Translations under genes and position numbers: made by a program
Notes under the pieces: generated by a model
The model's input: only the letters and a program-made list of their open reading frames with translations
Told to the model about the DNA's origin: nothing
Databases searched by the model: none
Shown here: piece after piece, positions 22,826-39,784 of the stretch
Numbering within the stretch: the first letter of the stretch is position 1
Layout of the letters: each line of letters opens with the position of its first letter
From: Candidatus Heimdallarchaeota archaeon
GTDB lineage: Archaea > Asgardarchaeota > Heimdallarchaeia > Heimdallarchaeales > Kariarchaeaceae
Length of the DNA stretch: 64,000 nucleotides
Assembly (NCBI GenBank): GCA_015523565.1
Contig: WAKA01000095.1
Coordinates: forward strand, 1-64,000
Reading direction: 5' to 3'

Positions 22826-24280
22826 TTGGAAATGGTTGAGCTAAAAAGAATAAACAATAATGTTTGGGAAATTCCTGTTACTGCCAGGTCAGACATGAAT
22901 GTTCCAGTGCACATTTATTCCTCAGAAATATTATTGAAAGACTTGGATCAGGGAGTTATAAATCAAGGGATGAATGTTGCATCATTGCCTGGCTTGGTGA
23001 AAAAAGTCTCCGTTATGCCTGATGGGCATTGGGGATATGGATTCCCAATTGGTGGCGTTGCCGCAATGGATGTTGAAGAAGGTGTCATTTCTCCAGGCGG
23101 TATTGGTTTTGACATCAATTGTGGAATGCGGTTAATTAGAACTAACCTTACTATTGAAGATGTCAAACCTAAACTAAAGGAATTAGTGGATGAACTATTC
23201 AAGGCAGTTCCAACAGGTGTCGGTACAAAAGGCTTGATTTCGTTGAAAGACCGCCAATTTGACGAAGTTATGCAGAGTGGAATTGATTGGGTGATTGAAA
23301 ATGATCTTGGATGGAAAGAGGATAAGCAATTCATGGAAGAGCAAGGGGTGATCAAGGGTGCAAGGCCTGAATTGATTTCACAAAAGGCACGTTCAAGGGG
23401 TCGTAATCAGTTGGGAACACTTGGCAGTGGCAATCACTTTCTTGAAATTCAAGTGGCACATCCCCAAAACATCCATGACAAGGAAACAGCAGAAGCTTTT
23501 GGTGTAGATATTGACAATCAAATCGTCATCATGATACATTGTGGTTCTCGCGGTTTTGGGCATCAAATAGCTTCTGAACATTTACGTGTCTTTTTGGAGG
23601 CAATGCCGAGATATGGCATAAAAATATTGGATAAGGAACTGGCCGCAGCCCCAATAAAATCGAGAGAAGGTGAAGAATATTTTGCATCCATGGCGGCCGC
23701 TGCAAACATGGCATTCGCAAATCGTGCAATTATTATGCATCAAACAAGGAAAGTTTTCTCAAAAGTGTTCGGTCAGGATCCTGAAGACTTGGGTATGAGA
23801 CTCACTTATGATGTTTGTCACAATATTGCAAAATTTGAGGAACACACTGTTGATGGTGAAAAACGGGAGGTCTTGGTTCATAGAAAAGGTGCGACTCGTG
23901 CTTTCGGTCCCAATCATCCAGATTTGGCAGAAAAATACAAACCTTATGGACAACCAGTCATTATAGGTGGAAGCATGGAAACTGGTTCCTATATCTTGGC
24001 AGGCACAGATGAATCCATGCATGAGGCATTTGGAAGCTCAGCACATGGATCTGGAAGGACAATGAGCCGAAGCAAAGCCAAAAAGCAAATTACAGGACAG
24101 GAACTCTATGAACAAATGTTAACTAAAGGCATATATGTACGGGGCGCTTCTTGGAAAGGTCTTGCCGAAGAAGCAGGATTTGCCTATAAGGATCTTTCAG
24201 AAGTAGTCAAAGCCTGTGAAGGTGGTCATTTGGCCAAACCCATTGTTCAATTAAGACCAATCGGAAATATTAAGGGTTAA
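22826..24280 (+). CDS. rtcB: RNA-splicing ligase RtcB
   Basis: MPDGHWGYGFPIGG, GFDINCG, GTLGSGNHF, HRKGAT, HGSGR, EEA..AYK. Confidence 0.97.
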   Translation: MEMVELKRINNNVWEIPVTARSDMNVPVHIYSSEILLKDLDQGVINQGMNVASLPGLVKKVSVMPDGHWGYGFPIGGVAAMDVEEGVISPGGIGFDINCGMRLIRTNLTIEDVKPKLKELVDELFKAVPTGVGTKGLISLKDRQFDEVMQSGIDWVIENDLGWKEDKQFMEEQGVIKGARPELISQKARSRGRNQLGTLGSGNHFLEIQVAHPQNIHDKETAEAFGVDIDNQIVIMIHCGSRGFGHQIASEHLRVFLEAMPRYGIKILDKELAAAPIKSREGEEYFASMAAAANMAFANRAIIMHQTRKVFSKVFGQDPEDLGMRLTYDVCHNIAKFEEHTVDGEKREVLVHRKGATRAFGPNHPDLAEKYKPYGQPVIIGGSMETGSYILAGTDESMHEAFGSSAHGSGRTMSRSKAKKQITGQELYEQMLTKGIYVRGASWKGLAEEAGFAYKDLSEVVKACEGGHLAKPIVQLRPIGNIKG

Positions 24281-25221
24281 ACATCCCATTCTATAGCCAT
24301 TGTTCCCATTGAAAATCCAAGGCTTGTGCCTGACACCAAGATTTTCGACCCCTTTTTGATCAATCCATGTTCAATCCCATAATTCAATTGAAACAGCAAA
24401 TCATTGGTTCCCATGTGTGGCACTTCTTGAAGGCATTTCAATCCTGTTTTTTCCAATGGGAATTTCATTTGTTCCAACACCATCTTGGTCGCTGCATATG
24501 TTGAACAACTTAAAGCAATAAAATCAATGTCTTTTGGATATGTTTTCATGGCAAGACATGCCTTTCGCATATGAGTTCCGAATGTTTTCACCATGTAAGC
24601 TGAAAGCTCCTTTCCTTTCTGTAAATTTGCCAACTGATATTTTGCATCACTGTTCAGAACAAACATGTCTCTAAAATAAGGGTTTGTGCTTATTTCCACA
24701 TATCTTATCATGTTTCCGTGATCTGCCTTGGAAAACGCAAATGCCCCAATAGAATCAGCAAAGATACAATTCCCGTCTGAACAATTGTTTGTATATTGTG
24801 TTGTCATTTGAACTGATCCAACTATGATGTTTTCAATTTCTGGGTGTATGAAATGGGTTCCCGCGATCTGTGCGGCAACTGTAACCGAAGCACATCCAAG
24901 GGAAAAATCAAATCCAAATCCTTCAGCTCCTGGAAAGGCTTCCATTGTGACTGGGCTTGCTCCTTCTGGATGCCTGTCTATGCCATTATGAATCCCCAAA
25001 AACCCTTGAATGTCTTCTCCTGTCAATCCTGCCATTTCTGCTGTTTTCCTGACTTCACTTATGAGTACCTTGTCCCAATCACTTTCATTTGAATAGACAT
25101 AGGTTGCAGGAACAGGATTTCTACCAAGGACTGTTTTTGGAAGATTAAGCTCTTCAACTGCTATGCGCTTATCGCCCTTGTTGTAACTCCATCCAGAAAG
25201 AGAAAGGTTATCGAACTTCAT
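24277..25221 (-). CDS. KAS III (FabH)-fold condensing or acyl-transfer enzyme with atypical active site
   Basis: Catalytic Cys in LGCAS; IFADSIGA; SCST in place of HQAN; HMGTND in place of GNT; C-terminal GLIKKGSKILVSG..LGFS...IEW. Confidence 0.78.
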   Translation of the reverse strand: MKFDNLSLSGWSYNKGDKRIAVEELNLPKTVLGRNPVPATYVYSNESDWDKVLISEVRKTAEMAGLTGEDIQGFLGIHNGIDRHPEGASPVTMEAFPGAEGFGFDFSLGCASVTVAAQIAGTHFIHPEIENIIVGSVQMTTQYTNNCSDGNCIFADSIGAFAFSKADHGNMIRYVEISTNPYFRDMFVLNSDAKYQLANLQKGKELSAYMVKTFGTHMRKACLAMKTYPKDIDFIALSCSTYAATKMVLEQMKFPLEKTGLKCLQEVPHMGTNDLLFQLNYGIEHGLIKKGSKILVSGTSLGFSMGTMAIEWDV

Positions 25222-25384
25222 AGAACTAATTCATAAGCCAAAAAGCCTATTCAATAAAGTTTCTTTGTTTACAATATCTATTTTACAGATAAAAAACAAG
25301 AAGAGCCCAACATCCCGAAAAGATTTTCTACACTTGATCGCCAATCATGCAACCATTTTTTTATTCATGAAAAAAACTTGAAAC

Positions 25385-38949: not shown

Positions 38950-38971
38950 CAAGTTAACGAAGAAAATATTA

Positions 38972-39784
38972 ATGGCATATGAAATTCAAATTATGATTGA
39001 TTTAACAGGCAAACGAGCAATCGTTTTTGGTGTCGCCTCAGAAACAAGCATTGCTTGGGCAATTTCAAAATGGCTTGCCAAAGCCGGTGCAAAAATCACC
39101 CTTTCATATCAAAAACGCTTTAGATCCCGTATTTACTCATTGACCAAAGATGTTGACTTCATCGAGGGGATGCATGAGTGCGATGTTGCTTATGACGATC
39201 AGGTAAGGGATTTCTTTGCAAACTTGGACGGGAAATTTGATATGGTCGTACATGCAATCGGCTATGCTCCTGCAACCGCATTGAGCAAACCTATTATCTA
39301 CACTTCCGAAGAGGATTTCAACACTGCAATGGTGATCTCTGCATATTCTCTGCAAAGAATTGTCAGGCATGCCATGAGGGTGTTGAACCCAAACAGTGCC
39401 TTTCTTACGCTGACATATTTGGGTGCTGTCCGTGTGGTTCCTGGATACCGAATTATGGGCGTTGCCAAAGCCGCTTTAGAGGCATTTGTCAGGGAGCTTT
39501 CTGTCAACATAGGTCTTGCTGGTCATCGTATCAATGCAATTTCCTCAGGACCAATTAAAACTCTTGCAGCAAGTCATGTCCCTGGATTTGACAACATCCT
39601 TGAGTATATGCAACATGCATCCCCGCTAAGACGAAACGTCGTACAGGATGATGTTGCCAAAACGGCTCTGTTTTTACTGAGTGATTTGAGCTCAGGCATA
39701 ACTGGCCAAACAATCTATGTTGATACAGGCTTTTCCAGCGTTGCTCTTCCTGCTGATATTGACAAGCTCAAATTTGAGGATTAA
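38972..39784 (+). CDS. fabI: Enoyl-ACP reductase (FabI family)
   Basis: GVASETSIAWAI, LTYLGA.RVVPGY..MGVAKAALE, INAISSGPIKTLAA. Confidence 0.92.
   Translation: MAYEIQIMIDLTGKRAIVFGVASETSIAWAISKWLAKAGAKITLSYQKRFRSRIYSLTKDVDFIEGMHECDVAYDDQVRDFFANLDGKFDMVVHAIGYAPATALSKPIIYTSEEDFNTAMVISAYSLQRIVRHAMRVLNPNSAFLTLTYLGAVRVVPGYRIMGVAKAALEAFVRELSVNIGLAGHRINAISSGPIKTLAASHVPGFDNILEYMQHASPLRRNVVQDDVAKTALFLLSDLSSGITGQTIYVDTGFSSVALPADIDKLKFED

Follow-up and report, generated by a model that had tools for sequence, protein, structure and literature searches.

How the archaeal host of eukaryotes exchanged isoprenoid ethers for fatty-acid esters has long been an open question, and a gene cluster from a Candidatus Heimdallarchaeota archaeon (assembly GCA_015523565.1) raises it in concrete form: does such an archaeon build its own acyl chains, and do they reach its membrane? 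The stretch of DNA analysed, hereafter the window, comprises positions 1 to 64,000 of contig WAKA01000095.1. Between 24277 and 39784 it encodes a 3243-aa multidomain synthase, a biotin-dependent carboxylase, an enoyl reductase (ER) and a protein with the fold of ketoacyl-acyl carrier protein synthase III (KAS III). An original prediction, made from the sequence of the window, had proposed a self-contained lipid-biosynthesis locus of bearing on the archaea/eukaryote lipid divide. We find a native Asgard locus that probably carries out de novo acyl synthesis; that its fatty acids feed ester or hybrid glycerophospholipids is our best explanation, held with evenly divided confidence.

The megasynthase and its proposed reducing and releasing partners

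All six open reading frames lie where they had been placed originally, and the Pfam and NCBIfam domain calls agree. The central gene (29218..38949, on the forward strand like all features below unless stated) encodes, in order, a ketosynthase (KS1), an acyltransferase (AT), a second ketosynthase (KS2), an array of acyl carrier proteins (ACPs), a ketoreductase (KR), a dehydratase (DH) and a phosphopantetheinyl transferase (PPTase). Its product exceeds the cut-off of the PfaA subfamily model TIGR02813 (1131 vs 1010 bits), and all its catalytic motifs are intact and conserved. KS1 (29284..30705) is PfaA/type I-like by its motifs and its ranking against PDB entries, with an intact Cys-His-His triad. 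KS2 (32356..33897) is FabF-like, with 25% identity to KS1, and retains the Cys and the two His, as do its bacterial homologues. Pfam matches and motifs identify a KR with NADPH-binding and YxxxN motifs (36295..36963), a single polyketide synthase (PKS)-type DH (37456..38235) with the catalytic His present and the usual Asp replaced family-wide by Glu, and an Sfp-type PPTase with its motifs, fused at the C-terminus (38395..38946).

This domain order and the position of the PPTase are those of the Type R secondary-lipid synthases of Koribacter, Solibacter, Elusimicrobium and Roseiflexus, which were described as a single PfaA homologue with KS, malonyl acyltransferase (MAT), second KS fold, three to six ACPs and KR, followed directly downstream by a PPTase, and whose product is uncharacterised (Shulse & Allen 2011, PMC3098273). 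Homologues from Acidobacteria and Chloroflexota are 52–57% identical over KS2, and the grouping with them, apart from other Pfa-like synthases, has a support of 100 in three trees, which lacked the five reference strains named in 2011. By its sequence, the megasynthase is a Type R Pfa-like synthase accompanied by a biotin carboxylase set. The locus is not a one-off and belongs to a catalogued bacterial family that is also found in Thermoplasmatota.

Two REPLACEMENTS set the window's family apart from the other Asgard copies: FabI for a FabK-type ER, and the KAS III-fold gene for an alpha/beta-hydrolase. Asgard copies outside this family start with about 700 extra residues bearing a FabK-type reductase. 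The window's family lacks this fused region and is the sole family with a FabI gene (10/12), represented in the window by a 270-aa short-chain dehydrogenase/reductase (38972..39784; Pfam, NCBIfam) predicted to act in trans. An alpha/beta-hydrolase adjoins the synthase in 28 of 31 cases in family f2 and 9 of 12 in f6, and in none of 24 in f5 and f7; the last three are further Heimdallarchaeia families, f5 and f7 being the remaining two of the class. In the window's family there is at most one weak hydrolase match, and instead the KAS III-fold gene, which is found in no other family, is present in 10 of 12.

The KAS III-fold protein (314 aa; 24277..25221, reverse strand) has the Pfam KAS III C-terminal domain and a structure model of pLDDT 94, with a TM score of 0.86 to FabH. 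The gene that was originally noted as KAS III-like lacks the His/Asn pair of the FabH Cys-His-Asn triad: the His position is occupied by Ser238, the Asn motif is replaced by HMGTND, and TIGR00747 gives 32 vs 292 bits. Conserved instead are Cys110, His269 and Asp274, invariant in 28 homologues. Their spacing along the sequence matches that of the Cys-His-Asp triad of the KAS III-like acyltransferases ChlB3 and CerJ (PMC9573744), which share the fold and have the Asp five residues past the His; a fold search with the model placed FabH, PqsD and OleA on top, not ChlB3/CerJ. The protein is probably an acyl-transfer or chain-release enzyme.

With FabI present where the fused FabK-type domain is missing, and the KAS III-fold gene standing in for the hydrolase, the full reductive cycle with a trans enoyl reductase that had been proposed is supported, together with chain release. 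Each swap counts as a single evolutionary event. The pair suggests that neither enoyl reduction nor chain release can be dispensed with, in support of a full fatty-acid synthase (FAS). Separately, Ca. H. aukensis (G015, L025, 3999-19999) has its synthase in pieces and with partial duplication: an ER-KS-AT piece is followed by a second KS-AT-KS copy, and the PPTase and hydrolase are repeated, through real duplication or assembly error.

Distribution and a possible link to lipid assembly

With KS1 as query against 400 Asgard genomes, strong matches were counted in 67: 41 of 47 in the window's order, all 12 of f6, none of 22 in f5 or of 2 in f7, and 14 in two Loki-type families, Ca. Harpocratesius repetitus among them. 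In GTDB terms f6 is probably Gerdarchaeales, and f5 and f7 are probably Hodarchaeales. The single copy in the 41/47 and 12/12 genomes is a housekeeping-like pattern, and three closed genomes carry an orthologue (Ca. Heimdallarchaeum endolithica, Ca. Heimdallarchaeum aukensis and Ca. Harpocratesius repetitus). Close homologues carry the labels Ca. Kariarchaeaceae or Heimdallarchaeota, and the two Ca. Heimdallarchaeum genomes belong to the window's order, so that the host is most likely a member of Kariarchaeaceae within Heimdallarchaeia. Other homologues come from Thermoplasmatota, Acidobacteria, Chloroflexota and Myxococcota. A search for related loci in a collection of genome contigs matched bacterial type II FAS (FAS II) loci alone and was uninformative.

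Three quick trees of concatenated KS1-AT-KS2 unite the Asgard sequences in a single clade (support 100, 99 and 97). The Loki-type copies nest beside Heimdallarchaeaceae, and a Heimdallarchaeia-only clade, a group named after the tree had been seen, is rejected; together these results suggest a transfer of the synthase into Lokiarchaeia. The placement of Thermoplasmatota shifts between tree methods, and the bacterial sequences sampled are best matches alone, so that the trees single out no donor and no direction of transfer among Bacteria, Thermoplasmatota and Asgard archaea. Four sequences labelled Bathyarchaeia, Zixibacteria, Methanobacteriota or Pacearchaeota (P0047, P0058, P0002, P0130) nest in or cluster with the Asgard clade, probably from mislabelled bins; P0047 and G091 do not differ in the columns aligned. 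Two Thermoplasmatota-clade copies (L126, L137) likewise show a PPTase fused to the synthase and carboxylase genes linked to it, but no fused reductase, and represent a second archaeal group with this synthase.

The survey of Asgard genomes that the original prediction had called for thus finds the locus conserved across most of the order, where it co-occurs with FakA/FakB and PlsY. PlsY and DegV/FakB are present in 59/59 genomes of the window's order (n=47) and f6 (n=12), and DegV is expanded to 9-23 copies in many of them; f2 and f6 reach 23 DegV/FakB and 8 PlsY per genome. Outside the class, a search of 69 genomes gave no DegV. FakA-like proteins occur in each of the three genomes of the class with the synthase that were examined for them; the window's genome and G056 retain the catalytic Cys and HxH, and in G056 fakA, fakB and plsY stand side by side. 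The two closed Heimdallarchaeum genomes have a plsY at a distance of two genes from the synthase locus. The PlsY of the window's genome aligns to 5XJ5 over its motifs, and three PlsC-family genes and a glycerol kinase are also present, while GpsA was not found there. Neither PlsX nor the FakA C-terminal domain was found in the 5 genomes checked for each.

On the ether side, a 400-genome search detected canonical geranylgeranylglyceryl phosphate (GGGP) synthase in 1 of the 59 carrier-group genomes and in most other Asgard genomes; as it missed the degenerate copy of the window's own genome, weak absences should not be relied on. Querying again with this degenerate copy gave nothing clear in f2, f4 or f6. 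The highly degenerate gene (L057:1255-2055, G000:C139; 46 bits vs a cut-off of 113) is conserved in the window's family. Glycerol 1-phosphate (G1P) dehydrogenase occurs in 45/47 genomes of the window's order and 0/12 of f6. In the closed genome of Ca. Harpocratesius repetitus (G134; L100, L048), the megasynthase, GpsA and three PlsC-family genes are present, and a genome search detected no GGGP synthase, digeranylgeranylglyceryl phosphate synthase (DGGGPS)-like gene, PlsY or DegV; this organism is a separate candidate for glycerol 3-phosphate (G3P) ester lipids.

Mechanistically, the carboxylase would provide malonyl-CoA, which the AT would load onto the tandem carriers, whose Thr would bear phosphopantetheine from the fused PPTase. 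The two ketosynthases would elongate the chain, each probably in its own range of lengths; reduction in each round would fall to KR, DH and FabI, and removal of the chain to the KAS III-fold protein. The unlinked FakA/FakB would turn the free acid into acyl-phosphate, with which PlsY would esterify glycerol phosphate (G1P or G3P; bacterial PlsY accepts G1P, PMC13400652). The second chain could be added by a PlsC homologue, or be a prenyl ether from a retained DGGGPS-like enzyme, and CarS would activate the product. Extender supply, elongation, full reduction and probably carrier activation are encoded in the locus as predicted; biotin ligase and lipid-assembly genes lie elsewhere in the genome, so 'self-contained' was an overstatement. 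More tentatively, a large branch of Heimdallarchaeia may make fatty acids de novo on Thr carriers and have a membrane composed in good part of acyl-ester or acyl-prenyl hybrid glycerophospholipids, formed via FakA/FakB and PlsY after loss or degradation of GGGP synthase.

Several points weigh against a role in bulk membrane synthesis. Bacteria with Type R synthases use FAS II for their membranes, and one bacterial Type R locus lies beside a wax-ester synthase. We know of no carrier phosphopantetheinylated on Thr, and no precedent was found in the literature searched, which left most subscription papers outside its scope. The window's genome keeps G1P dehydrogenase, the degenerate GGGP synthase-like gene, DGGGPS-like genes and CarS. 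About half of f5, a family lacking the megasynthase, has Fak-PlsY all the same, so the module may be a scavenging route, and megasynthase-bearing Lokiarchaeia lack DegV, 11 of them, in family f20, keeping GGGP synthase. Shared ancestry among the genomes means that the counts do not stand for independent events. No product of a Type R synthase is known (PMC3098273). MK-D1 is without GGGP synthase but probably has isoprenoid ether lipids (PMC7015854), which means that absence of this enzyme does not force acyl lipids.

An alternative is that the product is a specialised reduced lipid, with a chain that is very long, hydroxylated or in part unsaturated and serves storage, envelope or protein acylation, in a cell with a bulk isoprenoid membrane, where Fak-PlsY scavenges only. 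In bacteria, Type R synthases form a secondary-lipid family, and one bacterial locus has acyl-CoA dehydrogenase/electron transfer flavoprotein and patatin genes among its neighbours besides the wax-ester synthase; two different KS domains exceed the needs of a simple FAS; and Lokiarchaeia with the synthase lack FakB, most of them retaining GGGP synthase. We nevertheless consider it rather unlikely, given that the Asgard loci fetched contain no tailoring, export or storage-lipid genes, and that retention is near-universal in two groups and coincides with loss of GGGP synthase and, in f6, of G1P dehydrogenase.

Extender, carriers and origin of the locus

A further question is which extender the locus supplies. 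Its carboxylase consists of a biotin carboxylase subunit (492 aa, 25385..26863; PF00289/PF02786/PF02785, above the NF006367 cut-off), a biotin carboxyl carrier protein (197 aa, 26865..27458; PF00364) and a PccB/MmdA-type carboxyltransferase (523 aa, 27535..29106; PF01039, E 2e-197, with a TIGR01117 match below cut-off). Carboxylase genes, often with birA, are linked to the synthase in nearly all Asgard loci fetched. The PccB/MmdA-like carboxyltransferase, and the fact that archaeal three-subunit carboxylases accept both acetyl- and propionyl-CoA, would allow a supply of methylmalonyl-CoA, from which the synthase could make methyl-branched chains that mimic isoprenoids. The AT (31078..31977; Pfam, motifs GHSLG and SAAFH, with a TIGR00128 fabD match below cut-off) makes this improbable: the AAFH motif reported originally is borne out as SAAFH at residues 820-824, and every homologue examined has xAFH, HAFH in bacteria, never YASH. 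By motif rules the AT is of malonyl type.

The carrier array (34105..35757) comprises, from motifs and alignment to solved ACPs, four intact ACPs and two degenerate ACP-like units. All four intact copies have Thr (window positions 34477, 34777, 35059 and 35335) where solved ACPs have the prosthetic-group Ser, and in this they depart from canonical ACPs, with Ser at the start of helix II. The PPTase that was expected to activate the carriers is present; routine activation cannot be assumed, since the attachment residue is Thr. Ser being the canonical residue, and Thr occupying 352 of the 363 carrier motifs in 119 homologues (10 have Ser), the carriers might stay unmodified, in an enzyme that elongates CoA-bound or imported acyl chains or uses another carrier; a stand-alone small ACP with a normal Ser motif is indeed encoded elsewhere in the window's genome, on a 3.2-kb contig beside a glycosyltransferase-like gene (L145:98-376, G000:C226). 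We regard this as very improbable. The PPTase is fused or adjacent throughout the homologues; three homologues have Ser in all copies, which points to the hydroxyl as what is conserved; and the four Thr sites use three different codons, with no nearby Ser able to substitute in a sequence check of the carriers. We infer that the fused PPTase would modify the Thr itself.

The class of the host either gave rise to eukaryotes or lies beside their origin, which gives some appeal to the idea that the locus is the archaeal ancestor of eukaryotic type I FAS, and a fused PPTase and flavin mononucleotide-type ER recall fungal FAS. When KS1 was ranked by similarity against solved structures, animal FAS came last of the 60 entries shown, with 177 bits, below about 55 bacterial and fungal PKS entries, and fungal FAS fell outside these 60. 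The animal and fungal enzymes share the iterative multidomain logic, full reduction and release, but differ in their low KS similarity and domain order, the Asgard enzyme having two KS and tandem Thr carriers. The synthase was also not found in the 24 genomes of f5 and f7, the probable Hodarchaeales. Such an ancestry is highly improbable. The proposed bearing on the lipid divide is supported, more strongly than could be told originally given the conservation across the order and the co-occurrence with FakA/FakB and PlsY; a specific kinship with eukaryotic FAS is not.

The locus is native to the Asgard genome. The tetranucleotide distance of the locus falls at the 64th percentile of same-size fragments of the genome, and its codon usage is nearer the genome mean than that of 92 of 101 large ORFs. 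At each border the locus overlaps its neighbour by 4 bp at the stop codons, with rtcB on the left (22826..24280; same flank in G001-G003 and L127) and with an archease gene, overlapping fabI, on the right (39781..40218, reverse strand). Logan contigs of run X1, which may be the source sample of the assembly, span both borders at an even depth of 23-25 and break only within the ACP repeats; one contig of run X2 omits one repeat, and the repeat count may vary. Gene order is identical, flanks included, on a 631-kb contig from a different sample, and also in three genomes of the genus (G001, G002, G003). The integrity check that had been asked for is thus passed on borders and composition. That bacterial DNA was joined to an archaeal contig, as the bacterial type of the gene content might suggest, is refuted by host-like composition, bridged borders, synteny in relatives, three closed genomes and the Asgard clade, and chimera and contamination were rejected.

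Elsewhere on the contig, the markers listed originally are present (rpl24e, rps28e, rpl7ae, rpoN, a GHMP kinase, an IPK-like AA-kinase and three Ras/Rab GTPases), apart from a 'roadblock' gene for which Pfam gave no confirmation; rps2 is present as well. RtcB and archease are partners in tRNA ligation; the locus sits between them, an arrangement kept in the genus, with the archease gene inverted in G002 and G003, and this interval may mark an insertion site. The window also encodes a 1411-aa subtilase-family protein (708-4943), between two Rab-like GTPase genes, and a methyl-accepting chemotaxis protein (20404-22197) not found at the corresponding position in L127 and G001.

Significance and comparison with known systems

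Asgard plsY and plsC have so far had no identified source of chains, and the locus is a candidate ACP-dependent synthase for them. It is passed down in most of one Heimdallarchaeia order and in every sampled genome of a second family, lineages in which GGGP synthase mostly escapes detection. If their membranes are indeed built in good part from such chains, archaea near the root of eukaryotes crossed the lipid divide independently. The synthase itself seems not to be the source of eukaryotic FAS; its product would be the first for a Type R synthase, on the first Thr-linked carrier. Two carrier genera have closed genomes.

Bacterial-type acyltransferases in Asgard archaea, and chimeric or hybrid lipids made with them, have been proposed before (PMC6431249, PMC6737245, PMC13400652); the accessible text of these papers identifies no acyl-chain synthase or acyl-phosphate source, and one of them judges a role in membrane synthesis unlikely. 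A PKS cluster with KS domains, nearest to the polyunsaturated fatty acid (PUFA) type, was reported in 2020 in one Shark Bay Heimdallarchaeota metagenome-assembled genome (PMC7472256). That report gives KS alone, read as secondary metabolism, with no architecture, distribution or link to lipid assembly. In the literature searched, with the scope given above, we found no paper on the architecture, distribution or Fak-PlsY link of the megasynthase in Asgard archaea, and nothing relevant on Asgard archaea with PfaA or Heimdallarchaeia with ACP-dependent FAS.

With the PUFA synthases PfaA-E the enzyme shares, besides the TIGR02813 match, the PfaA-like KS-MAT, tandem ACPs, KR and PKS-type DH. The genes and domains of the locus include no PfaB, no PfaC with KS-CLF (chain-length factor) and a FabA-type DH pair, and no PfaD, so polyunsaturation is not expected. 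The closest known system remains Type R, with which the locus has in common the domain order through KR, the number of carriers, the PPTase behind them and, in some members, a carboxylase gene. It differs in having an archaeal host, a PPTase fused to the synthase, a full carboxylase set, an ER of its own (FabI or the fused FabK type) and a dedicated enzyme for probable chain release, and in the DH and Thr carriers, absent from the original description of the family. The second KS was described in 2011 as a CLF; as KS2 keeps its triad here and in the bacterial homologues, it is presumably not an inactive chain-length factor, and that label, rather than the membership in Type R, looks wrong.

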